Sequence record: DRR723986_3087
Reading direction: 5' to 3' (one strand)
Length of the DNA: 32,252 bases
Made by a program: the position numbers and the translations under genes. Below are positions 1 to 13,708 of the stretch, piece by piece. The notes under the pieces were generated by a model. The model saw nothing but the letters and a program-made list of their open reading frames with translations, was not told the DNA's origin and searched no databases. The stretch's first letter is position 1; every line of letters starts with the position of its first letter.

Positions 1-597
1 CACATGGGTGACGCCCATATCGTGATCATCCACCACAACCGCCAGCATATAAACGGGCGTGCCATCAGAGCGCAGCAAAACCATATCATCCAGCTGGTCA
101 TTGCGGATGGTAACATCGCCCTGCACCTGGTCTTTGATCACGCTCACCCCGTCGCGCGGGGCCTTGATGCGCACCACATAGGAGGCATCTGGGTGGCTGG
201 CGGGGTCGGCATCGCGCCAGGGGCTTTGGAACAGGGTTGAACGTTTCTCGGCCTGTGCGGCCTCGCGAAAGGCTTGAATTTCCTCTTGGGTGGCAAAGCA
301 TTTATAGGCCTTGCCCGCGGCCAGCAGGCTGTGGGCCACTTCGGCGTGGCGCGCGGCGCGGTCGAATTGGCTGATGATCTCGCCGTCATGATCCAGCCCC
401 AGCCACGCCATGCCCGATAAAATGGCCTGCGTCGCCTCGGGGGTTGATCGGGCGCGATCCGTATCCTCGATACGCAACAAAAACTTGCCACCACGCCCCC
501 GCGCATAAAGCCAGTTAAACAGCGCCGTCCGGGCGCCGCCGATGTGCAAATAGCCAGTGGGCGAGGGGGCAAAGCGGGTGACGACAGGGCCTGACAT
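1..597 (-). CDS. gltX: Glutamate--tRNA ligase, N-terminal part (runs off the window start)
   Basis: My translation from ATG at 597 gives [29 protein letters not shown] (class I aaRS HIGH motif); the frame is open to position 1. Not in the ORF track because its stop lies outside the window. Confidence 0.97.
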
Positions 598-605
598 GCG
601 GTTTA

Positions 606-621
606 GTTAACCTTTCGGTAA
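606..621. promoter_or_regulatory. Putative CtrA box upstream of comEC
   Basis: GTTAA-CCTTTCG-GTAA; the reverse complement TTAC-N7-TTAAC has 1 mismatch to the CtrA consensus TTAA-N7-TTAAC. It lies in the divergent gltX-comEC gap. Confidence 0.6.
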
Positions 622-677
622 GAATTCAGTTGCTAGCTTTTACGCCTGTCTACCGGGGTGCCAAGCAGGGGGCAAGC

Positions 678-2153
678 GTGCGTGTTTTCCAAACACTTGA
701 AACCGCCTTTGCCCTGCAGCGGGGGGCGTTGTTTCCCTGGGCGCCGGTGATGTTAGCCTGTGGGATAGGGCTGTATTTTTCCTTAACGATCGAGCTGACT
801 TTCCCCATTTATACGGCGCTTTTTGTCATTTTTGTAATCGCCAGCGCCGCGGCGCTGCGGGGCGGGCTGTTGGCGCAGGTTTGGGCGGGGGCTGTGGCGC
901 TGGTTGTGCTGGGGGTGCTTTTGGCGGGTTTGCGCGCCCATGCGGTGGCGGGGCCGGTGCTGGGCTTTCGCTATTATGGGCCGGTCGAGGGGCGCATTAT
1001 CGCGATAGATCGATCAGGCAGCGATGCGCTGCGGCTGCTGCTCGATCAGGTGGTGTTGGCCGATACCGCCCCCGACAGGGTGCCGCGCCGCGTGCGGGTG
1101 TCGCTGCATGGGGCGCAGGGTGTTGTGGTGCTGGCGCCCGGGCAACGGGTGATGATGAGCGCGCATCTTTCGGCGCCATCTGGCCCGGTCGAGCCGGGCG
1201 GCTTTGATTTTCGCCGCCATGCCTGGTTTTTGGGAATTGGTGCGGTGGGTTATACCCGCACGCCGGTGGTGCTGGCGGTGGCAGATCGCCAGGGCGTTTG
1301 GCTGGGGCAGCTGCGCCACCACCTGTCGCAAAGGGTGCAGGCGCGCATTTCTGGCGATGCGGGCGGGTTTGCGGCAGCGATTCTCACAGGCGATCGTTCG
1401 GCGGTGGCGCAACCCCGGCTCGAGGCGCTGCGCGACAGCAATTTGGCGCATCTGCTGGCGATTTCAGGGCTGCATATGGGGCTGTTGGCGGGGTTTGTTT
1501 TTGCCCTTATTCGCGGTGGGCTGGCGCTGTGCCCGCCGCTGGCGTTGCGCCTGCCGGCGCGCAAAATTGCAGCTGTGGTGGCCATGGCGGCAGGGGCGTT
1601 TTACCTGGCGCTTTCGGGGGGCAATGTGGCAACCGAACGCGCCTTTAGCATGGTTGCGGTGATGCTCTGCGCGGTGTTGCTGGAACGCCGCGCGTTGTCG
1701 TTGCGATCAGTGGCGGTTGCGGCGCTGGTGGTGCTGGCCTTGCGCCCCGAGGCACTGGCAGGCCCCGGTTTTCAAATGAGTTTTGCCGCCACCACGGCCC
1801 TGGTGGCGGTGTTTGGCTGGCTGACCAAGCAGCGCCCAAATACCGGCTGGTTGGCCCAAAAATGGCTGCGGCTGGCGCTTGGCGTGGTGGTATCCTCGGG
1901 CATTGCGGGGCTGGCCACGGCACCTTTGGCGGCGGCGCATTTCAACCAGATTGCCCATTACGGATTGCTGGCCAATTTGGCCAGCGTGCCCCTGATGGGG
2001 GCGGTGATAATGCCTGCGGCGGTTATTGGCATTTGCCTGATGCCCTTTGGGCTTGACGGGGTGCCGCTGTGGGTGATGGGCCAAGGTTTGGCATGGGTGT
2101 TGTTTGTGGCCGATACCGTGGCGGCCTGGCCCTCCTCATATGTTATTTATTAA
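678..2153 (+). pseudogene. comEC: ComEC/Rec2 DNA-uptake channel, 5' part, interrupted by the integrated element
   Basis: Motifs PGGFDFRR and HLLAISGLH, GFQMSF and many TM helices. Likely start is GTG 678 (ORF track starts at 630). Host sequence ends at the att core (2132); the tail SSYVIY* is element-derived. Confidence 0.93.
2118..2140. repeat. Left attachment junction (core CTGGCCC at 2126-2132)
   Basis: GTGGCG-GC-CTGGCCC-TC-CTCATA; the core is identical to 11120-11126. Confidence 0.88.
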
Positions 2154-2214
2154 CATATTGATTTTAAGTTATAAAAATAGACGAAAATAATGTCGTATAC
2201 CAAACTGTATACCA
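2151..2214. promoter_or_regulatory. Left att arm: IHF consensus site and tandem integrase arm-type repeats
   Basis: Reverse complement of 2151-2163 is AATCAATATGTTA, a perfect WATCAANNNNTTR. GTATACCA occurs at 2195-2202 and 2207-2214, and again at the other end (10994-11001). Confidence 0.65.
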
Positions 2215-2225
2215 CATCATTGGTT

Positions 2226-2585
2226 TTAGCATTCAGGCACCTCCCCGAAGTCATAAACCTCCACAGACCGCTCCCAGATAGCTTTGTGAGTAACTCTGTC
2301 AGCGTAGAAGCGGCCTTCGCCGGTCTGCACTTCAAAAAACCGGTGTTCGCCTTTTTTACGAGCGACAACCAATGTCACATTCGCCATTGGAATCAAGCAT
2401 GGGTTGCCACCTTGATCAAGCACCTCAAGCCAGCGTTTGCCGATTGTGGCCAGCTGATCCACGCCACGGTCCGTCAGTGTTGCTCGGACCCGCTTTCCGG
2501 CCTGCGCCTCGTATTCAATTTCGACATCATCACACCAGATAATCCGGTGATATGGAATTTTGCCCGATTCAGTTTCGATAAGCAT
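2226..2585 (-). CDS. Hypothetical protein (~119 aa, beta-rich), last gene of the element
   Basis: Within ORF 2226-2717. Preferred start ATG 2585 (MLIETESG) has GAGG just upstream and is co-oriented with the other element genes. Confidence 0.6.
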   Translation of the reverse strand: MLIETESGKIPYHRIIWCDDVEIEYEAQAGKRVRATLTDRGVDQLATIGKRWLEVLDQGGNPCLIPMANVTLVVARKKGEHRFFEVQTGEGRFYADRVTHKAIWERSVEVYDFGEVPEC

Positions 2586-2614
2586 AGATGGCCTCATGTT
2601 GCATAGAGAGAGAT

Positions 2615-2852
2615 TGGCCTGACCGAGACGGCGTGAGGTGCCGAGGACAGTTCGGTCAGGCCAGTTTGCATCCGCGCAGCCCTGCAAACCGCCGATGCTC
2701 AGGGGATCTAGAAGCACTCACCCCTGCAAAGTGATCCAAGTTATCTTGCGTGGCGTATGCATTGCAGGATCGCCACTTAATAGGCGCGCGCTTGGCCGAC
2801 GGTTAGCTGAGCAAGATGGGTGGCGCATCGCCCACACAACGCGCCACCCATC
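2615..2852 (-). ncRNA. Candidate structured RNA/ssDNA element between the capsid gene and the last ORF
   Basis: Series of perfect inverted repeats: 2615-2626/2652-2663 (12 bp), 2664-2670/2683-2689 (7 bp), 2700-2705/2721-2726, 2750-2755/2771-2776, 2815-2826/2841-2852 (12 bp), plus long-range 2696-2702/2807-2813. Strand is inferred from the flanking genes. Confidence 0.4.
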
Positions 2853-2857
2853 ATCTT

Positions 2858-4489
2858 TTACGCCGTCGTCAACGAAATCACGTTAAATGCCTGAGGGTGA
2901 CGAACATTCACGTCAGCCAGCATGTGCGATGTGATTGCGATTTTTGCCGACGTTGCGTTGGTATACGGATCGACAATCAGATCCACACCACCGAACATAG
3001 CGACCAGCAGATGCTGCCAAACGCCCAGATAGACGTTGCTTTCCGTTGCCTTGGTGGTCTGGATGACGCGCCGCCCGAGGATCGTATTTGTTGCGGGATC
3101 CACAACGAACCGCCCGGAGCCACTGTCGATCGCTGTCTGAGCGATGCGAGCATAATCCGCTGGGTGCATCACAAACACAGCGCCATCAGTGCTGATATTG
3201 TCAGCCTCGATAGCAGATAGAGCCGTCAGAGCCTCGGCATATGTGATCGTATTACCGGCGGCAGTCAGCGTATTCACGCCTGAGGTATTTGCCACCCCCG
3301 TCGGCTGCCCGTTAGCGCCTGTGCCTTCAAGGCCGGCGGTATCGATCGCCTGCATCAGCGTGGTGCCAATGCTCCGCCGAACAATCTCATCAATTGACGG
3401 CTGCGATTGAAGCAACGCTTCTCGAGTGAAGGTTTGAGACGCGCTCACACGCTTCATCGACATGCTGATGCTATCGACATCAATCGAGCTGTCCGAAACT
3501 GCTGCGCCCTCGGCGAGCCACGCTGCGGTAGCGTCTGCTGCCAGTTTTGGGACAGTGAAGTTGCGGTCAAGACCGGTCATAACAGTTGCACCCGCTGCCA
3601 TCACAGAGGACGCGGAACGCAGCTTGTCGATAAACATGCCTGCATTCAGATCGGTTGTGATTGCGCCTGCTGCATTGCCAGCTGACGTGATCGTTGCACG
3701 CTGACCAAGGATAGCAGATGCAGGCACGACCAGCCCGCGCGCTTGCCCGGGGTAGGAGCGAGCTGCCTCTTGAGACATTTCGCGCTCATAGCCCGCATTC
3801 GACCAGTCACCGGTCACATGCGCGCGCAGCACAGCGCCAATGCTGTAATCACGCGTCCCACGGCTGTGAACCGCAGGAGCCGCAAGATCCAAAGGCGAAG
3901 TTGCAACATCATCTAGCAGCTGATTGCGAAACTGCTCCAGCGACGTGCCAGCTTCGATAGCTGCGGCAGCAAGATCAGTTTTACCATGTTGACGGCCCAT
4001 GGCCGCGATTTGTTTCGCTTCATTTTCCATTGAAGAAGCCTTTCGAATTGCCCGCAAAGAGAACGCGGCGGCTTCCCGGCCTGTGCGTTTTTGCAGATAA
4101 GCGATGCTCAGAGCAGCCCCGCCAGAGGCAAAAGCCGCCATGGCTTTGCGCCCATTTTCCGACCTAGAAAATTTGACGGTTGCTCGGCCATCCTGATCGA
4201 TACTGACAGCGCCCACCTGTTTGCGGGTGTTGCCATTGAGCAGAACGGGAAACGGCCTATCCTGACCGCTCTTTAGCGCGTCATCGCAGCGCGCTTGAAG
4301 TTGATAAACCTCATGTCCCCGCGCAGTCCGCACAGCCGTATAGCGGCCGTCTACAGGCGTCTCTGAGGGGGCAAGACATGAAATCATTGTGGTGCTTTCA
4401 GCTGGCTCAAAATCACGTTTGGCCAGCTCTTTGATCGCAGCAATACGGGCAGCATCCAGCTGCATCGGTGCTGTTGGTGTTAGCTGCAT
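2858..4489 (-). CDS. HK97-fold major capsid protein with N-terminal degenerate prohead-protease-like domain (543 aa)
   Basis: C-terminal capsid signatures AAWLAEG, LEGTGANGQPTGV, FVMHP, ILGRRV, LIVDPYT and VRHPQAF. The N-terminus has SETPV, PVLLN, QVGAV, ATVKFSRS and LSIAY, resembling fused prohead proteases. Confidence 0.9.
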   Translation of the reverse strand: MQLTPTAPMQLDAARIAAIKELAKRDFEPAESTTMISCLAPSETPVDGRYTAVRTARGHEVYQLQARCDDALKSGQDRPFPVLLNGNTRKQVGAVSIDQDGRATVKFSRSENGRKAMAAFASGGAALSIAYLQKRTGREAAAFSLRAIRKASSMENEAKQIAAMGRQHGKTDLAAAAIEAGTSLEQFRNQLLDDVATSPLDLAAPAVHSRGTRDYSIGAVLRAHVTGDWSNAGYEREMSQEAARSYPGQARGLVVPASAILGQRATITSAGNAAGAITTDLNAGMFIDKLRSASSVMAAGATVMTGLDRNFTVPKLAADATAAWLAEGAAVSDSSIDVDSISMSMKRVSASQTFTREALLQSQPSIDEIVRRSIGTTLMQAIDTAGLEGTGANGQPTGVANTSGVNTLTAAGNTITYAEALTALSAIEADNISTDGAVFVMHPADYARIAQTAIDSGSGRFVVDPATNTILGRRVIQTTKATESNVYLGVWQHLLVAMFGGVDLIVDPYTNATSAKIAITSHMLADVNVRHPQAFNVISLTTA

Positions 4490-4860
4490 TTGTCAGCCTC
4501 CTCTAATTTTTTGAAATCGACCCATAGGGCGCTTGGCGACTGCATGCGGAGAGCCAGCGTTAGCCGGTGCAAATACAACGGAACGTAACGCTCGCCTTCA
4601 GACAGCAGCATTACACCGGCGATATGATCGCGAAGCCGCCACGCCGACAGAATAAGCGTAGACGCGCGTGAGAGGGTGCCTGCCGTTACAAGCGGCCCAC
4701 GGCCCCAAGCATCCATGCATGCAGCTAGCAAGGCATCACAGCGGCTTGCAGGCCACTCAGGAAACGCGCCCGCAACAATCGCCTGTGCGTTCTTCAGGCC
4801 TGTGCTGCGAATCCGCTGGGTATCTTCGCGGGTTAGCCATTTTGCTGGGGCGTTCATCAT
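4480..4860 (-). CDS. Hypothetical protein (126 aa)
   Basis: Overlaps the upstream stop (4857-4860) and the capsid start (4480-4489), consistent with translational coupling. Confidence 0.7.
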   Translation of the reverse strand: MMNAPAKWLTREDTQRIRSTGLKNAQAIVAGAFPEWPASRCDALLAACMDAWGRGPLVTAGTLSRASTLILSAWRLRDHIAGVMLLSEGERYVPLYLHRLTLALRMQSPSALWVDFKKLEEADKCS

Positions 4861-5288
4861 AAGATCCCCCGAACATGTGCATCGACGTAATCGCCGATTT
4901 CGATAAAGATGAAGTCAGCTTCCTCAAGCGCGGCAACGGCTGCCTCACGGGAGGTAAAAATGCCGGTGTAGTCTTCCAACTCACTCCAACTGGGAACACC
5001 GACGATCACCGTCTCGATCTCCCGCGCCTGATGCTGGTCGATGGCTTCAGCCAGCGCTTTTTCATCAATCAACTTAAGCAACTCAGCCTGCTTGCTTGTC
5101 GGCACTCCAAACATGCGCAAGCGGCCCATCAGCAGGCTCTTAGCGAGATCAACGGCTCCGTATCGGCGCTGATTTCCAACCCTCACGCCGTCGCTGAAGG
5201 GGAGGTCATAGCGGTAGCATTCATTTACCCAGTTTGAGCGGCTTCGGAAGCCAGCGCCGCGGGCTAAATCGGTAGTGGTAAATAGCAT
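4857..5288 (-). CDS. MerR-like winged-HTH protein (143 aa)
   Basis: N-terminus FTTTDLARGAG...GNQRRYGAVDL...LRMFGVP fits a MerR-type wHTH; GAGG RBS upstream; first gene of the capsid operon. Confidence 0.7.
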   Translation of the reverse strand: MLFTTTDLARGAGFRSRSNWVNECYRYDLPFSDGVRVGNQRRYGAVDLAKSLLMGRLRMFGVPTSKQAELLKLIDEKALAEAIDQHQAREIETVIVGVPSWSELEDYTGIFTSREAAVAALEEADFIFIEIGDYVDAHVRGIL

Positions 5289-5414
5289 TTGGCAACCTCA
5301 AGTTTGCGATGCAGTATATTGATTTAATTATACTATAATGAGGCGTCTGGGTGAATCTCTCCATTGGCTGCAAAGGTGAGATTTGGAGTTTTCGGGGCAG
5401 CCGCTGAGACTGGC

Positions 5415-5458
5415 TCGGGGTAAGAACGACCCGCGTTGCAGGGATTTATTGAGGACCC
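5415..5458 (-). other. Putative lambda-type cos packaging site (cosQ-like plus cosN-like)
   Basis: Minus strand reads GGGTCCT-N16-CGCGGGTCGTTCTTACCCCGA. GGGTCCT is identical to lambda cosQ and is followed at a similar spacing by a GC-rich partial dyad (GGGT-N7-ACCC). Confidence 0.45.
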
Positions 5459-5459
5459 A

Positions 5460-6302
5460 TCAGCGCTTATTCGTTAAGCCTGCTTTGGCTATTTCAACCG
5501 CATTTCGCAGTTCAGTGATCCGAAGATAATTTAACTGATCGGCAGTTCCCAAGCGCACTCTTCTTTTGATTAAATCGTTGAGGCGGGGAATATCGATACC
5601 CAATTCCAAATTATCTCTCTCGCGTTCGAGATACTCAACTACGAAGCCTTGGGGGCGACAGAAAAAAAACTCATGCCCATAACTTGCCACAAGTGAGTCA
5701 AAATTGGCGCCAAAAACTTCCTTCGGAACTTGGTAATAAGCGATACGCTTGGGAAAAGGTGGTAGGCAAACCAAGCTGTCACGATAACCAAAATCAAAAT
5801 AGACCGTTGCTCCACAATCGATCCAATTCTTTGGAAACACTGCAACCCGTGGGGTGGCAAAATGCCATTGGTAATAGAAATTATGCTGCCGAAAATCATC
5901 TTCAAATCTAGATTTATCCCGTTTCAGCCTATTTCCATCAACGATCCAAAGCATATCGCCGTAGAAGTCTTCTCGCGCCTTCTGTTCTTCGCGCGAAATG
6001 GGGCTGTGTTGGAACTCGATGACTAGTCCGCTGGGCGTCTTAACGTCAGCAATGTGCTTTTCACCGTTCGGAGCGAAATGGACAATTTCTTGCCATTCTT
6101 TTGGGAAGTTATCCTTCCAGTTTCGATGCCACTCGGTCTCAGGCTCCCACCAGCGATCGCAGTCGGTTTTACTTTTATGCGCCCAGTGCCAAACTCGCTG
6201 TTTGCCGCACTTGGCCACGACATCAGATCCGCAACACTGGCAAAGAGCCACGCCCCCGGGCGTCGGTTCAACCCTCTTATCCTCAAAGAGCGCGTATCGC
6301 AT
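5460..6302 (-). CDS. CoiA-like Zn-finger plus PD-(D/E)XK nuclease (280 aa)
   Basis: CQCCG...AKCG...WHWAH...DCD...EPETEWH and HIADV...VIEFQHS motifs typical of the CoiA-like family; 3' half is AT-rich. Confidence 0.85.
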   Translation of the reverse strand: MRYALFEDKRVEPTPGGVALCQCCGSDVVAKCGKQRVWHWAHKSKTDCDRWWEPETEWHRNWKDNFPKEWQEIVHFAPNGEKHIADVKTPSGLVIEFQHSPISREEQKAREDFYGDMLWIVDGNRLKRDKSRFEDDFRQHNFYYQWHFATPRVAVFPKNWIDCGATVYFDFGYRDSLVCLPPFPKRIAYYQVPKEVFGANFDSLVASYGHEFFFCRPQGFVVEYLERERDNLELGIDIPRLNDLIKRRVRLGTADQLNYLRITELRNAVEIAKAGLTNKR

Positions 6303-6429
6303 AGCGGTTCCCTAGAGTGAGACGATTGCCAGCAAGCTGAATTTGTAAGAAGTCTATCTTTTTGCTCTGAGCCTATCAGGAAGAGAGAGCAGAGCAAACT
6401 CAATAGAGAAATCAGGCTTTGGTCGCGCC

Positions 6430-6596
6430 AGTGGAAAAGGGGGAACGTTTCCACGCAACTTGCCGAACAGTGACCAAAGATGCCGATGCAATGCGGAAAC
6501 AATTAGACATAGACCTAAAAAGCATCTTTTAATCAGTCACTTAATACATTCTACATGTTGCGTGGGAAAGTAATCCCCCTTTTCCACTCATCCACT
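6430..6596. repeat. Long inverted repeat flanking an AT-rich spacer; putative replication origin
   Basis: AGTGGAAAAGGGGGAacgTTTCCACGCAAC (6430-6459) is inverted relative to GTTGCGTGGGAAAgtaaTCCCCCTTTTCCACT (6557-6588). An extra TCCACT lies at 6591-6596. Directly downstream of the primase-helicase gene. Confidence 0.7.
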
Positions 6597-6623
6597 ATGT
6601 CTCTAAAGACAGGGCTTTTTTTA

Positions 6624-9035
6624 TCAGTTTTCACCGAAATCAAACCCACTCTGATCGGTGGCTTTCTGGAAGGGTATGAGGCCCTTGAACTCACCACGGC
6701 TAGCCTTTTTTCCGCGCGCCCATCCGGCGCTTTGTAAAATCGCACCTACTCTCCGAGAGAGAGCTAGGGTTTGCCGCTCACGTTCAATCCCGAGATGGTC
6801 AAGTAACTCGCGGGCAAAGACATCTGCGCCTTTAGCTGCCGCTTTTTCGGCATAAGTCAAAACGTCACCAGCCCACGGATCGTCCTCACTGCGGTCCATT
6901 ACAAGCTCTGCAGCTTTACTCTCGAGCGCACTGTCCAGCCACCATCTCTCGCCATTGCGGTAGAGAGTCACCGCCTCGGCCCAGAGTTGATCACGGTCTC
7001 GCTTTAAATCCTCGCCACTGATGCGCCCCACGACAACCGGCCAAAAACGGCGCCCACCGGTTGCATCAGTCATCCAGTCTTGGCGGTTTGTTGTGCCGAC
7101 GAACACGCACCGCCTCGGCTCTACAACTTCCGCTCGGCCATACGGCGGGCGGTAGCGCTCAGTTGTGCGAGACAGAAAAGCCTTCGTGCTTTCAATATCG
7201 GTTTTCCGCATTGCCGCTAATTCAGGCAATTCAATTATCCACTTTCCGCGCAGAGCCGCTGCTGCATCCTTGCTGGACAAGTCACCGAGACTGTCGTGGA
7301 ACCAACTATCGCCAGTCAGTATTCGAAGGGCGGTTGACTTGCCAGCACCCTGCGGGCCTTCCAGAACAGGGACGTGATCGGCTTTGCATCCGGGGTCGAA
7401 GGCCCTTGCCACTGCAGAGATGGCCCATGCCTTTCCAACCGTTCTGTTGAATTCAGTATCTTCAGCGCTGAAATAGGTCACAAACAGTCGATCAAGGCGT
7501 GACACTCCATCCCACACGAGATCTTCAAGATAATGGCGAACTGGCGAGATAATGTTGTCTTGGGCTGCTGCTAATATTGCATCAGTGACGACAGCCTTAG
7601 TTGCCCGCGGAAAGCCATTACGATTAAACCATCTTATCGTGTGGGAAATGTCGACATCCGAGACTTCGCGGGGCTTAAATGTAGACTTTGGAGTCTTTGT
7701 GCCGGGTATAGGCCTCATCAGCATAATGATGCCAGCCAACTCGTCGTAGGCAAATACACAATGCCATTCATCTTCGTTTGTCAGCGTAGCGTATGCGGAT
7801 TGATAGCACCAAAGCGGGCGTCCACGGCCATCGCGCATAATCTCTTCTTCTTCGCGTTCGCCTTGAAGGGTCGCTAACTCTGCGCGGCAAAGACGGTATG
7901 ACGTCTTGCAGCCTTCATCATAAACAAACGGCCGCCCCTCTCCGTCGAATGCAATAAACGCAGCCTCAGATGAACTCTCGCGAAAAGGAGCCTCACAGCG
8001 GAGTTTCGAACCCATTTTCATTTCTTTGACCCACTCAGAAAGAGGCTTTTCTACCCCCTTGACCTCGATCGGCGTGTCCAGCTTCAGCGATTTGTGGTCT
8101 TGGGCCGAATAACTGCCGTTGGGATCGAAAACTAACTCCGTTTTGGCTTTTTTATTCATCAGCGCCACATCATCCGAACGCGGAGGCTTACTGTAAGGGC
8201 CGTTGTCGAAGGGACCAGCGCCTTCATTCACAATTGTGATGTCTGCGTCCGCAACATGGTAACCGGGCGCGTTTGATACATCGGGCTTTGCGCAAAAGAC
8301 TAAACGTCCCTGATCCCAAACAGCTAAATCAAAAACCGTCCGATGCTCATGCCCCACTACCTCGCCAGTCGAGCGCGATTTTCTGGGGAAGCTAAACGAG
8401 AGGTTTTTTAACTCCATATGAACGCGCACATGCGCACGAAGGAATGGCAGGAACTCTGGGTTGGAAATGCGCAGCCATGCATGCGTGGCATTTCCGGGCT
8501 GTTCCCCATCCTTCACCACCCGTGCGGACGATGCACGCAATTCTATGCGCTCAGCTTTTGAAATCCCGGGCAGGATTGCCTCCATCAGCTCTAAACGCTG
8601 GCTGATCGTCATTGCCGCCCAATGCTCGGGGATGCCCGGCGGGTTATCGGCGTCTAGCAGCAACCACGAAACAGGATCGATGCCATGCTTAAGGCGAGCG
8701 CCGACAAGTTTTCCGTCATGCTTCACCAAACCTGTGGGCGCCTCTTCGCACTCCACACCAAGCCGTTGGATCAGTTTGGCTTTAGAGAGATAGCAAAACT
8801 TTTCGTTTATTTGGGCGCCCCTCCAGACGCCGGGGCAGATCGCTATGTCACTTCTGTTTGTGACATAATTCAGATGCTTCACCATTTCCTGAGCGGTGTT
8901 AGCAGATAGCGTTATCGCTTCCCCTTCCGACACATTGGCAATGGGTGCCTTTTCAAGAGACCCATTTTGTAGCGTGTAAGTCTTACAAACGTAGGACGGA
9001 TTAGTAGTCCTGATCAGTGTGATTGCGTTCAGCAT
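6624..9035 (-). CDS. Primase-helicase fusion: AEP-like N-terminus plus VapE/VirE P-loop domain (~803 aa)
   Basis: Walker A GPQGAGKST, WIIELPEL, YRPPYGR, FVGTTN, DATGGRRFWP and RDQLWAEA (VapE family). N-terminal LLDAD and THAW resemble AEP motifs. ATG 9035 is preceded by GGAG. Confidence 0.9.
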   Translation of the reverse strand: MLNAITLIRTTNPSYVCKTYTLQNGSLEKAPIANVSEGEAITLSANTAQEMVKHLNYVTNRSDIAICPGVWRGAQINEKFCYLSKAKLIQRLGVECEEAPTGLVKHDGKLVGARLKHGIDPVSWLLLDADNPPGIPEHWAAMTISQRLELMEAILPGISKAERIELRASSARVVKDGEQPGNATHAWLRISNPEFLPFLRAHVRVHMELKNLSFSFPRKSRSTGEVVGHEHRTVFDLAVWDQGRLVFCAKPDVSNAPGYHVADADITIVNEGAGPFDNGPYSKPPRSDDVALMNKKAKTELVFDPNGSYSAQDHKSLKLDTPIEVKGVEKPLSEWVKEMKMGSKLRCEAPFRESSSEAAFIAFDGEGRPFVYDEGCKTSYRLCRAELATLQGEREEEEIMRDGRGRPLWCYQSAYATLTNEDEWHCVFAYDELAGIIMLMRPIPGTKTPKSTFKPREVSDVDISHTIRWFNRNGFPRATKAVVTDAILAAAQDNIISPVRHYLEDLVWDGVSRLDRLFVTYFSAEDTEFNRTVGKAWAISAVARAFDPGCKADHVPVLEGPQGAGKSTALRILTGDSWFHDSLGDLSSKDAAAALRGKWIIELPELAAMRKTDIESTKAFLSRTTERYRPPYGRAEVVEPRRCVFVGTTNRQDWMTDATGGRRFWPVVVGRISGEDLKRDRDQLWAEAVTLYRNGERWWLDSALESKAAELVMDRSEDDPWAGDVLTYAEKAAAKGADVFARELLDHLGIERERQTLALSRRVGAILQSAGWARGKKASRGEFKGLIPFQKATDQSGFDFGEN

Positions 9036-9132
9036 CAACTCAACTCCAAAGTTGAGCCAACAGCGTTCACGTGCTATGAAATACGGGCATAGAGAGAGTC
9101 CCGTCGGCACGCTTAGCAGCTGTCGGCGGGTT

Positions 9133-9327
9133 TTATTTTGCGGTGGTGGCAGTGAGACGCTCTACGAGGGCCTGAACATCAGCCTCACGAAAGGCTACGC
9201 AACGTTCGGATAGCTTGATCGGCTGTGGGAACTGCGGGTCGCGGTTCATCATCCGATACCATGTTGAGCGGGTGTAACCGGTTTGTTTTAGGGCTTCCGG
9301 CAGGCGAATGAGACGATTTGTTGACAT
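9133..9327 (-). CDS. alpA: AlpA-family regulator/excisionase (64 aa)
   Basis: RLIRLPEALKQTGYTRSTWYR...FPQPIKLSERCVAF is a canonical AlpA pattern; AAGGAGG RBS. Confidence 0.93.
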   Translation of the reverse strand: MSTNRLIRLPEALKQTGYTRSTWYRMMNRDPQFPQPIKLSERCVAFREADVQALVERLTATTAK

Positions 9328-9390
9328 GCTGGCCTCCTTGGGCGTTTTGGCATGTCCTCGTCATTAGGCAGGTTTTGGTCTTCGCGAGCC

Positions 9391-9415
9391 TGACAGAATT
9401 TCAGAAATTTTGTCA
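9391..9415. promoter_or_regulatory. Operator-like palindrome upstream of alpA
   Basis: TGACAGAATTT-CAG-AAATTTTGTCA, 11-bp arms with 1 mismatch. Confidence 0.5.
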
Positions 9416-9418
9416 CAA

Positions 9419-9793
9419 TTACTTTGCCTCACCGGCCCACCGCCGATGCATCCTTTCAATCGACTTCCAATCGTAACGGTCTTCGCCTTGATGGGAGAAG
9501 TAAATCTGCCGGATGATCTTATATGCATCCTCGTGGGTTTTGCCGTTTTCAACCGTATAATATCGGAAAAGCCGGTCGATCTCGCGCCACTTTACAAACT
9601 CGTCAGCTTTACTGTCAGGCCGCTTGTTTCGGAGATCGGACGCAATAGCTTTGCCGAGGTCGGGGAGGCCACCGGGAGGCGAAAGCTCAACAAGCTTCGC
9701 TAGAGTCTCATTATCCTTGGTCCGTATCCAGCGATCGTAGAGAAGATCGAACTCACTAGTGAAAAATAGATTGTCAGTTTTTCCCCGTGACAT
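9419..9793 (-). CDS. Hypothetical protein, possible C-terminal HTH (124 aa)
   Basis: Overlaps the integrase 3' end and sits between int and alpA; helical C-terminus GKTHEDAYKIIRQIY...WKSIERMHRRW. Confidence 0.65.
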   Translation of the reverse strand: MSRGKTDNLFFTSEFDLLYDRWIRTKDNETLAKLVELSPPGGLPDLGKAIASDLRNKRPDSKADEFVKWREIDRLFRYYTVENGKTHEDAYKIIRQIYFSHQGEDRYDWKSIERMHRRWAGEAK

Positions 9794-11012
9794 ACCGCGC
9801 CCACCTTTCTAGCACCTCGCGACGCTCTTCGAGCAAATCGCTACGTTGATATGCTGCATCAAGCGATTTTGGTTGATGCGCCTTAATGAAGTCTGTCACA
9901 TCCTTACGCACCCCGTTCTCTGCCATCCAAGATCCTAGAGTGGCTCTGAAGCCGTGAACTGTGACGTTTGGATCGAAACTTTTTAAAGCAAGGAACATTG
10001 CGTTCTGAGAAAGAGGCTTGTCGTGCTTCCTGCCAAGGACGTAGCGTTGATGGCCTGTCAGTGGCTGAATCGCTCGAATCAGTGCGATGACCAGCTCCGG
10101 GAGGGGTTGGCGATGGGCCTTTCGCATTTTCATGCCTGCCGCTGGTGTGGTCCAGATCCCACGCTCTAAGTCTAAATGCGCCCATTCCATATGTCTTATC
10201 TCTCCCGTTCTCTTACAGAGCAGTAAAGCCAGAGTTAGTCCAAGTTTAGTGTGTGGACCCATCCGGGGGCGTTCTTGAAGCCAAGTCCAAAATTCGGGTG
10301 CGCGTTCAGGCTCAAGGGCGCCAAAATGCTCTTCGACGTGATGATGCTTGGGCATAGAGCGAACTGGTGGGCAGGCATTAAATTCGCAGAACTCGAGGTC
10401 AACCGCATAATCCAAGACGCGTTCGATATTGCCGCGCACTTTCTTTCCTGTAGGAGGCTTACTGATCCAAAGCGACCTTATCGCTTCAACGATTTCCCTC
10501 CGCTTGATCTCATTAACTGGCCGCGATCCGAGAACAGGGAAAACGTGGTCGTGTAGTTGCTGAAAGACCTGTCGTTTGTATGGTCCGTCTGAAAGACCAT
10601 CCTTTAAGTGTTTTTCATACCACTCGGTTGCTATCGTTTCGAAGGTTGGCGTCTTACCTTGGCTGGAAATACGTTCGCCCGTTACAAGGCGGGTCATTTC
10701 CAATGGATCGAGTGATAGAGCCACAGCATTCCTGATGGCCTGTGCGCCATGTCCAGCGCTTACCAAAGTCTTGATTGCAGCGGCCGCTTGCCTTGCAGCA
10801 TCAGCCTTCACGTCCGGCCACGGCCCGATGGTGATATTGGTTCTTTTGTCCCCAATAACCACGCGACAGATCCAAGAGACGCGGCCACTTTTGCGTGCGT
10901 TTGCGTAGAGGTTAGGTGCGCCTTCTGGCACCCATGTGTCCTTCTTAGATGCTGCAAGAGCTTCCAGTTCTTTAAATGTCAGGCGCATGTTTTGTATACC
11001 AATTGTAGCCAT
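9774..11012 (-). CDS. int: P4-like tyrosine integrase
   Basis: Arm-binding N-terminal domain (NLY...SGRVSW...ITIGPWP) and intact catalytic set R(KRTGE)-K(MKMR)-HGFR-H(KAH)-Y(AAY). The true start may be ATG 10988 (MRLTFKEL). Confidence 0.95.
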   Translation of the reverse strand: MATIGIQNMRLTFKELEALAASKKDTWVPEGAPNLYANARKSGRVSWICRVVIGDKRTNITIGPWPDVKADAARQAAAAIKTLVSAGHGAQAIRNAVALSLDPLEMTRLVTGERISSQGKTPTFETIATEWYEKHLKDGLSDGPYKRQVFQQLHDHVFPVLGSRPVNEIKRREIVEAIRSLWISKPPTGKKVRGNIERVLDYAVDLEFCEFNACPPVRSMPKHHHVEEHFGALEPERAPEFWTWLQERPRMGPHTKLGLTLALLLCKRTGEIRHMEWAHLDLERGIWTTPAAGMKMRKAHRQPLPELVIALIRAIQPLTGHQRYVLGRKHDKPLSQNAMFLALKSFDPNVTVHGFRATLGSWMAENGVRKDVTDFIKAHQPKSLDAAYQRSDLLEERREVLERWARYVTGKN

Positions 11013-11110
11013 ACATCATGAAACACGATTGGACACGTTGGGATTTTCTGCAACTAAAAAATCAATAAATAATGGCTTTTTGAGACATTTTAGACGTAAT
11101 GATACAAACA

Positions 11111-11135
11111 TGTGGAGTTCTGGCCCGGCGCCACA
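11111..11135. repeat. Right attachment junction (core CTGGCCC at 11120-11126)
   Basis: TGTGGAG-TT-CTGGCCC-GG-CGCCACA: 7-bp overlap flanked by near-perfect inverted core-type sites. Confidence 0.88.
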
Positions 11136-11696
11136 AGCGGCGTGCCCACGCCGCCTGCGGTCGTGTTGCCGCTAATGGCGCTGGGGGCGCTTGGGGTGGT
11201 TTTGTGGCAGGGGCGGTGGGGCCTGTTGGGGTTGGTGCCGGTGGCCCTGGCCTTTGCCTTATGGGCAGGCGTGCAGCGGCCAGTGGCCCTGGTGGCCGAC
11301 AGCGGGCGCTTGGTGGGGCTGATGGGCCCCGAGGGGCGCGCCCTGTCTGCCGCGCGGGGGCAGGGGTTTGTGGCGCGTGTTTGGCTGGAAAATGATGGCG
11401 ATATTGCCACCAGCCAAGCGGCGGCTGCTGCGCGCTGGCCGGCGGTGCCGGTTCTGGGGCAGGGGCGGCTGATGGTTCTGCGCGGTGCAAAAGCCGCGCA
11501 GGCTGCCACCTGCCAGCCGGGCGATTGGGTGATAAGCGATGCCACCTTGCCCCCGGGATTGCCCTGCCAAACCATCGATAAGCGCCGCTTGCAAGACACC
11601 GGGGCAATCGCGCTTTATGCCACGCCAGATGGCGGGCTGCGCATGCGCAGCGTGGCCCAGATGGGCGGGCTGCGCCTGTGGCATGGCGGGCAATAG
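11121..11696 (+). pseudogene. comEC: ComEC 3' part, separated from the 5' part by the element
   Basis: WPGATSGVPTPPAVVLPLMALGAL...RPVALVADSGRLVG...FVARVWLENDG...GAIAL...RLW resembles rhodobacteral ComEC C-termini and is in the same frame as the 5' part across the att core. Confidence 0.88.
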
Positions 11697-11769
11697 GGGG
11701 GGTAGGCTTGCAGGCGGCAGCGCGGGCGGCCGTGCCGCTGGGGCACAGACCGGCGCGCAGCCGCAAAGA

Positions 11770-12465
11770 TTAGTAGGTGCGGATCAACCCCACCAACCGG
11801 CCCTGCACGCGCACCTTATGGCCGGGCAAAACGCGGGTTTCATAGGCCGGGTTTGCCGCCTCTAGCGCCACGCTATCGCCGCGTTTGAAAAACCGCTTTA
11901 ACGTGGCTTCCTGATCTTCCACCAGCGCCACAACGATATCGCCGTTATTGGCGGTGTTGGTTTCGCGGATCACCACGATATCGCCATCGTTGATGCCCGC
12001 CTCGATCATCGAATCGCCCTTAACCTCTAGCGCGTAATGCTCGCCGCGGCCCGCCACCATGCTGCCCGGCACCGCAATGTGATGCGAGATTTCGGCAATC
12101 GCCTCGATGGGCACACCGGCGGCAATGCGCCCCATAACCGGCAATTCGCGTGCATGCAGCGTTTCGATCGCTTGCGCGGCGGCTGGTCTTTCGCTGGGGC
12201 GTTCCCCATCGATCACGCGCAAGGCGGGCTGGGGGCTGGGGGTGGTTAAGGCATCGGGCAGGCGCACCACCTCGATGGCGCGGGCGCGGTGGGCCAGACG
12301 GCGGATAAAGCCGCGCTCTTCCAGCGCTGTAATCAGGCGGTGAATGCCCGATTTCGAGCGCAGATCCAGCGCCTCTTTCATTTCGTCAAAGCTGGGCGGC
12401 ACGCCATCGCGCTGCACCCGATTGTGAATAAAATTCAGTAAGTCGCGTTGTTTTTTCGTCAACAT
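11770..12465 (-). CDS. lexA: SOS repressor LexA (231 aa)
   Basis: MLTKKQ...PPSFDEM...RARAIEV; GRIAAG cleavage site; GDSM Ser and ATLKR Lys; GGAGG RBS before ATG 12465. Confidence 0.98.
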
Positions 12466-12497
12466 GGGCGCGGCCTCCGGCAAATGCGTATTGCTTT

Positions 12498-12512
12498 GTT
12501 CTACGCATGTTC
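12498..12512. promoter_or_regulatory. Alphaproteobacterial LexA box
   Basis: GTTC-TACGCAT-GTTC matches GTTC-N7-GTTC directly upstream of lexA. Confidence 0.85.
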
Positions 12513-12526
12513 CCGTTTTGTGTCAA

Positions 12527-13708
12527 CTATTCGCTTTCGATTGGCATATATTCTACCATTTCGCCCACAGCGCGGGCCGGGTCGCCGACGGGGCGGATCA
12601 CCAATGCGTTGGCGTCGGATAACACGCGCAAAAGCGCGCTGTCTTGGCGCGCAAAGGCGGTGATGCCCTCGGGGGTAAGACGGGCGCGCATGTAATGGGT
12701 GCGCGCGCCATTGGCGCCCAGCGGCGCCAGCAGTGCTGCGCGGCGCGTTGGGCTGTGGGCGGCAGGCAGCCCCGCCATTTTGCGCAGCATGGGCAGCAAA
12801 AACACATAGCCGCATACCATGGCCGATACCGGGTTTCCCGGCAGGCCCAGCACCACGCTTTGCCCCAACCGCCCTGCCATCAGCGGTTTGCCCGGGCGCA
12901 TGGCAACCTTGTAAAACGATTGCTGCACGCCCAGGCTGGCGCCTGCCTTGGCCACCAAATCGTGATCGCCCACCGAGGCGCCGCCGATTGTCACGATCAC
13001 ATCTGCCCCCTCGGCCAGCGAAAAGGCCAGATGCAGCGCCTCCATATTATCGCGGGCGATGGGCAAAATGCGGGTTTGCGCGCCATAGCTTTGCAGCATT
13101 GCGGCCAGGCCAAAGGTGTTTGAGGCAATGATCTGGTTGGGCCCCGGGGTCTCGCCCGGCACCACCAGCTCGTCGCCGGTGCTGATCAGTGCCACCACGG
13201 GGCGCCGGGCCACGGGCACCTGGGCAATATTCATTGCCGCCAGCAAGGCCACATCCATCGGGCTTAGGCGCCGGGGGGCGGGCAGGCTGTCGCCCAGCTG
13301 AAAATCGCAGCCAGCGGGGCGGATGTTTGTGGCGCCATCTGGCGTGCCTGTGATGGTCATATGCGCGCCATCGCGCTGGCAATCTTCTTGCAGCACCACC
13401 ATAGTGGCGCCCTCGGGCACGGGCGCGCCGGTAAAGATGCGCACCGCTTGGCCCGGCCCCACAGTGCCGCCAAAGGCATGGCCTGCGGCCGCCTCGCCGA
13501 TCACCTCAAAACGGGCATTGGGCCGCACGGCAGATGCATCCAGCGCATAGCCATCCATCGCTGATGCGGCAAAGGGCGGCTGGTTGCGCCGCGCATGGCA
13601 GGGCTGCGCCAGAATGCGCCCGCCCGCCTGTGCCAAAGGCACCTGTTCAACGCCCAGATCGGGGGCCAGATCGAACAGGTTTTGCAATGCCGCGTCGACA
13701 GAAATCAT
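12527..13708 (-). CDS. moeA: Molybdopterin molybdotransferase
   Basis: [36 protein letters not shown] and GLPGNPVS motifs. Confidence 0.97.

Follow-up and report, generated by a model that had tools for sequence, protein, structure and literature searches.

An island inserted in comEC

The stretch of DNA considered here (record DRR723986_3087, 32,252 nucleotides; hereafter the window) belongs to a marine Rhodobacteraceae bacterium whose close relatives carry the source label Lutimaribacter sp. The competence gene comEC, flanked by gltX and, on the opposite side, by lexA-moeA-trpC-trpD, is split by an island bounded by two copies of the heptamer CTGGCCC (2126-2132 and 11120-11126), giving an insert of 8994 bp. 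The parts of the locus are:

678..2132, plus strand: N-terminal 485 codons of comEC, with DUF4131 (PF13567, 5.7e-15) and Competence (PF03772, 7.2e-59) domains; the frame is also open from TTG 630
2126..2132: attL core CTGGCCC, placed by the overlap of the flank matches on the empty site of the nearest genome
2133..11119, minus strand for all called genes: inserted island, 8987 bp, which with one core copy makes 8994 bp
11120..11126: attR core CTGGCCC, placed by the same overlap
11127..11696, plus strand: C-terminal 189 codons of comEC and stop, aligning without indel directly after the N half

A preliminary description of this DNA had placed the break at codons W-P and taken CTGGCCC as its boundary, and both points were confirmed by colinearity with the nearest of the genomes compared (G001), in which comEC is uninterrupted and the flanks are ∼96% identical to the window. 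By blastn, window positions 1-2132 matched positions 3638-1507 of the G001 locus with 96.9% identity over 2132 nt, and positions 11120-12646 matched 1513-1 of the same locus (L001) with 95.3% identity over 1527 nt. The overlap of the two flank matches on the empty site, which reads gtggcggcctggcccggtgccac, is exactly the 7-bp core. In a window this rich in GC the heptamer occurs often (19 times where 11.9 are expected, a count reached by 6 of 100 shuffles), so the repeat alone is no proof of insertion; the proof lies in the colinearity with the uninterrupted gene. GC content is 0.62–0.70 in the flanks versus 0.44–0.59 in the insert.

The two halves of the gene join without a seam. On the left, the frame of ...GCC TGG CCC is that of the open reading frame (ORF) 630/678-2153, which past the break runs through six island-derived codons to a stop (2133-2153); on the right, TGG CCC GGC is in the frame of ORF 11112-11696. 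When the halves were aligned by MAFFT with 11 intact orthologs, the N half extended to column 515 and the C half took over at column 516, leaving neither gap nor overlap; the row from locus L002 is a spurious ORF and uninformative. The N half has 97.6% amino acid identity to the intact ComEC of G001, and the GTG start at 678 coincides with the N-terminus of an intact, 99% identical homolog of 674 residues (P0063). Alignment to the ComEC proteins of relatives therefore revealed no deletion or misalignment at the junction, and the single frame of about 674 codons that had been predicted for the rejoined gene holds, with neither stop nor frameshift.

Within the protein, the Competence match in the N half covers profile positions 1-243 of 270 and ends at the break. 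Canonical ComEC has a C-terminal metallo-beta-lactamase-type nuclease domain. The C half here matched no Pfam domain at E ≤ 1, and hence no domain of that type; intact homologs of 674 residues also match only PF13567 and PF03772, so the missing nuclease domain is a trait of the lineage rather than damage. Relative to G001, the ratio of nonsynonymous to synonymous substitution rates (dN/dS) was 0.10 in the N half and 0.13 in the C half (dS of 0.118 and 0.122, respectively), without indels, and 0.03 and 0 for the neighboring gltX and lexA genes. The comEC halves are undecayed, a state which fits recent insertion and continued selection alike.

Occupied and empty sites in wild populations

Junctions of the island were sought in the contigs of four of the 20 metagenome runs listed (X1, X3, X4 and X5), in which contig depth does not equal copy number and rare forms are dropped during assembly into contigs. 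In X4, which stems from a different study, a contig of 4124 nt crosses attL (window 1200-5314, 172 differences) and one of 5849 nt crosses attR (window 5368-11215), both differing from the window by ∼4%. Contigs of X1 also cross both island junctions, although their left end has diverged. The insertion site is occupied as well in a second lineage of comEC (93% identical): one catalogue protein of this lineage (P0065) stops directly behind that W-P pair and carries a distinct island-derived tail, and another (P0219) passes from island-like residues into WPGATSG of the same lineage. Judged from these sequences, elements with differing ends have settled at one and the same W-P codon pair in two host lineages or more.

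Empty sites occur in the same material. The joint from 2125 to 11120, which skips 8994 bp with seven letters fitting both sides, was present in X1, X3 and X5 at depths of 12.6, 59.7 and 416.8, respectively; none was reported for the X4 contigs. In X5 the depth of the flanks was ∼300–1075 and that of the island bins ∼1–54, a rough sign that carriers are a minority there. Among 36 catalogue ComEC proteins (15 of 40, 4 of 4 and 15 of 56 listed cluster members, plus two other matches), 31 span the site, of which 30 run through it and one is cut, and intact proteins of 674 residues are found in both lineages (P0063 and P0066). Overall, carriers of the island look like a minority, with empty sites commoner than occupied ones. 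Since the same codons are occupied elsewhere and in a second comEC lineage, with empty sites alongside, comEC appears to be a regular target rather than an accidental one. The mixture of empty and occupied sites fits a mixture of strains as well as it fits excision.

Two further proteins of the 93% lineage, P0064 (524 residues) and P0067 (550 residues), pass W-P and end 39 and 65 residues later, respectively, with unrelated-looking tails. Frameshifts, the ends of contigs or errors of assembly could account for these early ends, as could a decay of comEC that arose independently.

Gene content of the island

The island holds nine ORFs, all open, compact and on the minus strand, and one longer non-coding stretch:

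2226..2717, minus strand: orf163, no known family
2858..4489, minus strand: HK97-type major capsid protein, 543 residues; PF05065 (2.2e-32, residues 284-538) and phrog_617 (4.9e-79)
4480..4860, minus strand: orf126, no known family; kept beside the capsid gene, with a 36% identical homolog at the same position in locus L042
4857..5288, minus strand: orf143, no known family; kept beside orf126 and the capsid gene, with 35–39% identical homologs in loci L042 and L045
5460..6302, minus strand: CoiA-like protein; PF25164 (1.2e-7) and PF06054 (5.2e-5), a zinc-finger N domain and a nuclease-like domain
6303..6623: non-coding stretch of 320 bp directly 3' of the primase/helicase gene; contains a long imperfect palindrome (6430-6467 / 6549-6588)
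6624..9110, minus strand: VapE-type primase/helicase, 828 residues; PF05272 (1e-80), phrog_256 and phrog_1313 (DNA helicase), phrog_15962 (primase)
9133..9327, minus strand: AlpA-family regulator/excisionase, 64 residues; PF05930 (2.2e-13), phrog_66 and phrog_2790
9419..9793, minus strand: orf124, no known family; 63–66% identical homologs just after int in loci L017 and L018
9774..11012, minus strand: tyrosine integrase of the P4 type, 412 residues; Arm-DNA-bind_3, Phage_int_M and Phage_integrase, phrog_1 (1.2e-45)

The integrase retains its three domains, and residues R268, K295/K298, H353, R356, W362 and Y388, which we take to be the catalytic R, K, H-x-x-R, W and Y positions, are invariant among six relatives. 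Together with the PF05930 match of alpA, this agrees with the preliminary description, in which integrase and alpA were considered intact. The small gene orf124 is kept next to related integrases (L017 and L018). In metagenome variants, orf163 has 3 nt inserted at 2312 and, at 2501/2505, a +1/-1 pair; the frame is kept in spite of these changes, which suggests that it is coding sequence.

Among the 10 ORFs scanned against Pfam and PHROG, no portal, terminase, tail or lysis family was matched. No packaging-redirection gene of the terS, rpp or ppi type was recognized by Pfam, PHROG or PDB matches among orf143, orf126, orf163 and orf124, for which remote homology is possible; orf126 and orf143 had no significant match in Pfam, PHROG, PADLOC or PDB. 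PADLOC gave no credible defence-system match for seven island proteins, and Rfam returned nothing at the gathering score for window positions 1-13000. No prophage or gene transfer agent (GTA) genes and no helper phage were found among the window ORFs scanned up to ∼24 kb.

The stretch around the CoiA-like gene (5460-6302; also 5604-7800) is the variable part of the island, with low contig depth in X3 and X5 and a 478-bp deletion in X1 (5458 to 5937), and the gene is best described as variable cargo. The protein had no PADLOC or PDB match. Its family is named after a competence protein and is carried here by an element that breaks comEC.

The capsid protein is the only structural protein recognized. 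It aligned with the solved capsid protein 8gta_A of PDB (1.8e-33, residues 278-534) and shares 32–36% identity with Roseobacter phage capsid proteins over residues ∼140-540. Its own family comprises at least 62 proteins, 40–99% identical and full-length at 530–553 residues, so the N-terminal extension is conserved. Residues 78-135 align to the protease part of fusions of Peptidase_S78 and Phage_capsid (hhalign probability 100%). In the capsid family the invariant His185 of these fusions corresponds to a nearly invariant Gly86 and their Asp227 to Ser122, and only Ser128 is kept of what are presumably the catalytic residues of the protease. The extension looks like a dead relic of a prohead protease domain, and the protein itself, by its sequence, looks like a capsid-redirecting homolog rather than part of a full head module.

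Used as a single query, the capsid protein found nothing in species genomes, whereas the family alignment found 11 loci, with full-length relatives in two only. One is the locus of a Roseicyclus metagenome-assembled genome (MAG), L042, where the module orf143-orf126-capsid occurs with 39, 36 and 48% identity; in the other, L041 of another Rhodobacteraceae MAG, the capsid gene is the last of an island and adjoins rplU-obgE-proB. The module thus travels on islands at other sites too. The possibility that the island capsid is a copy of the GTA capsid gene was ruled out, as it had no match in G001 at E ≤ 0.001. Against 201 genomes of the family, the island DNA had no near copy and short matches in nine, the best with 64% identity over int.

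Attachment site architecture

Around the core of the empty site the two half-sites are inverted repeats of each other, with agreement at 7 of 8 positions in the window and 6 of 8 in G001. Near the island ends lie copies of a short repeat:

2195..2214, plus strand: two GTATACCA copies 12 bp apart, attL-proximal arm
10994-11001: third GTATACCA copy, attR-proximal arm

The window holds four copies against 0.13 expected, a count reached by none of 100 shuffles, and three of the four fall no more than ∼130 bp from an end of the island, which makes them candidates for arm-type integrase sites. At the attR end lies a promoter-like site that is directed into int. Taken together, these features would fit a working tyrosine-recombinase site with a 7-bp overlap.

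In X4, 102 other letters take the place of the 104 nt that separate the attR arm from the start of int (window 10973-11078). This variant is ∼96% identical, so the int promoter and arm region differs among variants that share the same site. At three other loci (L015 6320-6510, L016 9830-10020 and L031 2310-2500), a conserved arm upstream of ∼60% identical integrases adjoins G/C palindromes. The palindromes beside related integrases consist of five G, 7 nt and five C, with element boundaries that are not checked against empty sites, and their arrangement suggests that the integrase clade targets hairpin-like palindromes of differing sequence.

Possible regulation of excision

The neighbor of comEC on the right, outside the island and convergent with comEC, is lexA:

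11770..12483, minus strand: lexA; LexA_DNA_bind and Peptidase_S24 (Pfam)

LexA boxes were searched for with an alphaproteobacterial consensus. The only exact match in the window, at 12498-12512, lies just upstream of lexA and is probably its autoregulation site. The island contains no exact match and three matches with one mismatch, all in coding sequence; the total count of matches, 10, lies below the chance mean of 14.6. SOS control of the island is therefore not supported. Some 65–90 nt upstream of alpA, a 12-nt palindrome (9391-9415, 92% complementary with a 1-nt spacer) is a candidate operator for that gene.

AlpA is discussed as the main regulator of the helper-phage-dependent cycle of phage-inducible chromosomal islands (PICIs) in Gram-negative bacteria (PMC6092414, PMC10085698). 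Satellites of the AlpA type are usually induced by a helper, after which the cell is likely lost, which argues against an on/off switch that serves the host.

Comparison with known elements

The preliminary description had called the island a phage satellite, a classification that its genes support (int, alpA, VapE and a single capsid gene, with portal, terminase, tail and lysis genes lacking). By this gene content, as opposed to packaging, it is best read as a PICI-like phage satellite, and we infer that it depends on a helper. Gram-negative PICIs, as described in PMC6092414, carry int, AlpA and a primase/replicase transcribed one way, with the origin just 3' of the replicase. The island resembles them in this module, in one-way transcription and in the position of the non-coding stretch at 6303..6623, which is a candidate replication origin by its location. 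It differs in its size, 9.0 kb against about 12–15 kb, and in that terS, rpp or ppi were not found. The same source describes PmCI172 of Pasteurella multocida and SaPIbov5 as PICIs with a capsid homolog, linked to small capsids. The island shares with these two a small size, a lack of tail and lysis matches and a single major-capsid homolog; unlike PmCI172, its capsid protein has a relic protease domain, its host is a marine Rhodobacteraceae bacterium and its site lies inside a protein-coding competence gene.

Two other classes were considered and rejected. Capsid-forming PICIs (cfPICIs) have 11 core components, including portal, head-tail adaptor, connector, terS, terL and HNH, of which at least 9 are required (PMC10085698). 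The island has its own HK97-type capsid gene with int, alpA and primase, and so holds 4 of the 11. Virion encapsidated integrative mobile elements (VEIMEs) are likewise small marine integrative elements that encode integrase, AlpA and primase/helicase; as set out in PMC9618062, they lack a major capsid gene and are defined as concatemers in virus particles, whereas the island carries such a gene and did not turn up in the viral-contig collection.

Mobile elements in comEC are already known. Streptococcal cases comprise a genomic island (Del Grosso 2002), transposons (D'Aeth 2021) and Phi1207.3/Tn1207.3, and insertion sequence (IS) elements are present in comEC of Piscirickettsia salmonis (PMC12378983, PMC12637031). 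There too a mobile element breaks the gene of the uptake channel, and transformation is abolished. Those elements, which occur in Firmicutes or Gammaproteobacteria, are islands of resistance genes, a conjugative prophage or IS elements, whereas the present one is a satellite-like island in an alphaproteobacterium with relatives that receive GTA DNA through ComEC. A search of article texts found no comEC insertion by a mobile element in GTA-bearing Alphaproteobacteria and no paper on phage satellites in Rhodobacterales.

A further comparison is with active lysogeny, for which the Listeria comK prophage phi10403S and SpyCIM1 in mutL are examples of regulated, non-lytic excision and re-integration (PMC7397523, PMC4689407). 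As in those cases the element lies inside a gene that precise excision would restore; regulated non-lytic excision and re-integration define phi10403S and SpyCIM1, whereas the present locus is known from its sequence alone.

Competence genes and gene transfer agents

The preliminary description had linked the insertion to two general facts, that mobile elements target competence genes and that ComEC is needed to receive DNA of the GTA of Rhodobacter capsulatus (RcGTA). Both are backed by a review (PMC12378983), which describes competence-gene insertion by unrelated elements as recurrent across bacteria and, citing Brimacombe 2015, ComEC and ComF as required for entry of RcGTA DNA. In G001, contig C27 (4188-12345; loci L052 and L037) carries a GTA_TIM gene of 1306 residues and, 6.4 kb upstream of it on the same strand, a capsid gene with PF05065, the sole one found in that genome. 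By its sequence the layout is that of an RcGTA-like cluster. An effect of the insertion on GTA reception would follow by extension from Rhodobacter capsulatus, the GTA genes being those of G001 rather than of the strain in the window.

Explanations for the insertion

We consider it probable that the island is a PICI-like satellite for which the W-P codons of comEC are a regular site in one Rhodobacteraceae genus, that its carriers are deficient in uptake and that excision would restore comEC. On this account a 9.0-kb PICI-like element would have entered a short imperfect palindrome in comEC by site-specific recombination through its tyrosine integrase, with exchange across the 7-bp overlap CTGGCCC at codons W-P, ∼485 of 674, a regular attachment site of the element's lineage within the genus. 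As the insertion cuts ComEC within the Competence (channel) domain, carriers would most likely be unable to import DNA into the cytoplasm, and in GTA-bearing relatives of Rhodobacter the block would include DNA delivered by GTAs. The core keeps the reading frame, so excision mediated by integrase and AlpA would restore the gene exactly. The benefit to the element, if any, would be protection from curing by incoming homologous DNA, an idea with which the general pattern of mobile elements in competence genes is consistent.

Several results weigh against this account. Homologous integrases, which the preliminary description had proposed to survey for comEC targeting, gave none: comEC was beside the integrase at 0 of 18 loci (8 from species genomes, 6 from metagenome contigs, 4 from a DNA search and 0 from viral contigs), all with relatives 51–68% identical, the closest that the survey reached. 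Targeting of comEC would therefore be confined to a narrow lineage, and such narrow targeting may simply reflect drift of site specificity. Four of the loci had long upstream flanks, and there the element follows genes for a GDSL lipase, DegT, an ABC ATPase and PtsP; no tRNA genes were found at the surveyed loci. No relatives of the integrase, capsid or VapE proteins were found in the viral-contig collection, and no small terminase or other packaging gene was identified in the island. Of the two joints proposed as signs of excision, the empty attB site was recovered in X1, X3 and X5, whereas the circular attP joint, which goes back across the island, was absent from the contigs of all four runs, bearing in mind that contigs drop rare forms. 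The low dN/dS of comEC is equally explained by recent insertion.

The strongest of the other explanations is that the site is a neutral landing place: the integrase would recognize a palindrome that happens to lie in a dispensable, genus-conserved comEC, and loss of uptake would bring no advantage. The site in comEC is a palindrome too, integrase relatives seem to lie beside short G/C palindromes with a 7-nt spacer at unrelated genes (with unverified boundaries), and carriers look like a minority (in X5 a depth of 417 for the empty joint and of about 25–50 for the island; 30 of 31 site-spanning listed proteins intact). This explanation is nevertheless somewhat unlikely, since the recurrent insertion into competence genes by unrelated elements (PMC12378983) argues for selection, and the insertion lies inside the gene rather than at its 3' end, with the lost 3' part not rebuilt by the element. 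The preliminary description had proposed a potentially reversible switch for DNA uptake. In a regulated form of it, in the manner of active lysogeny, a host or environmental signal would drive non-lethal excision, comEC would be restored for uptake of DNA or GTA cargo and the element would then re-integrate. In its favor, the frame would be exactly restored on excision, both integrase and AlpA are intact, neither half of comEC has a stop or an indel and dN/dS is about 0.1, and empty and occupied sites occur together in X1, X3 and X5. We regard the regulated switch as unlikely all the same, as no circular form was seen in the contigs of the four runs, the island has no exact LexA box and one-mismatch matches no commoner than chance, the role of AlpA in Gram-negative PICIs (PMC6092414, PMC10085698) points to excision in infected rather than healthy cells, and the mixtures of empty and occupied sites fit strain heterogeneity equally.

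Two explanations that deny the island mobility, or the gene its loss, fare worse. An immobile remnant, that is, a decayed prophage fragment fixed in a comEC that is now a pseudogene in the strain, would account for the single structural gene, the degenerate protease part of the capsid protein and the lack of relatives in viral contigs; it is very unlikely given nine open, compact ORFs, a capsid family conserved at full length with 40–99% identity, variant indels that keep the frame, and a second host lineage whose same site holds elements with different ends, with empty sites in both lineages. It is highly improbable that ComEC is split and still working, with the 189 C-terminal residues translated from the in-frame GTG at 11112, under expression driven from the island end, and pairing with an N-terminal part of 491 residues so that uptake is kept. 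The window does have that in-frame start three codons before W-P, and another variant (P0219) has a longer ORF running from the island into the C half, but the only promoter-like site near the junction faces the other way, toward int, and the break interrupts the Competence domain in the membrane, where the match reaches profile position 243 of 270.

The favored account, of a satellite with a regular site in comEC, can also be carried further, to a family of minimal satellites in GTA-producing Rhodobacteraceae for which comEC is a dedicated site: import through ComEC would be shut, curing by GTA-borne or free DNA with an empty site prevented and further copies coming by that route excluded, until excision reopened the gate. 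In the boldest form of this reading the island capsid would combine with portals and tails of GTAs or helper phages into heads fit for 9 kb. We hold this extension to be improbable; if true, it would amount to a population-level on/off polymorphism in the ability to receive GTA DNA. As for the preliminary description overall, its observation was sound (the precise insertion, the seamless rejoining and the gene set), and its interpretation survives in part, the regulated switch being unsupported with no circle seen.

Significance

Why do bacteria maintain GTAs, and who gains by it? According to one proposal, chromosomal curing, cells can use homologous DNA from outside to delete their genomic parasites; if it is true, parasites should attack the uptake machinery, as they do for transformation in pneumococci and other bacteria. 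The comEC locus offers a natural case of this kind in GTA-bearing Rhodobacteraceae, with occupied and empty alleles in marine populations, and it points, on the basis of its sequence, to a type of satellite in Rhodobacterales that combines int-alpA-VapE with a capsid protein bearing a dead protease domain. With these alleles the locus gives a directly testable system for GTA reception and for curing.

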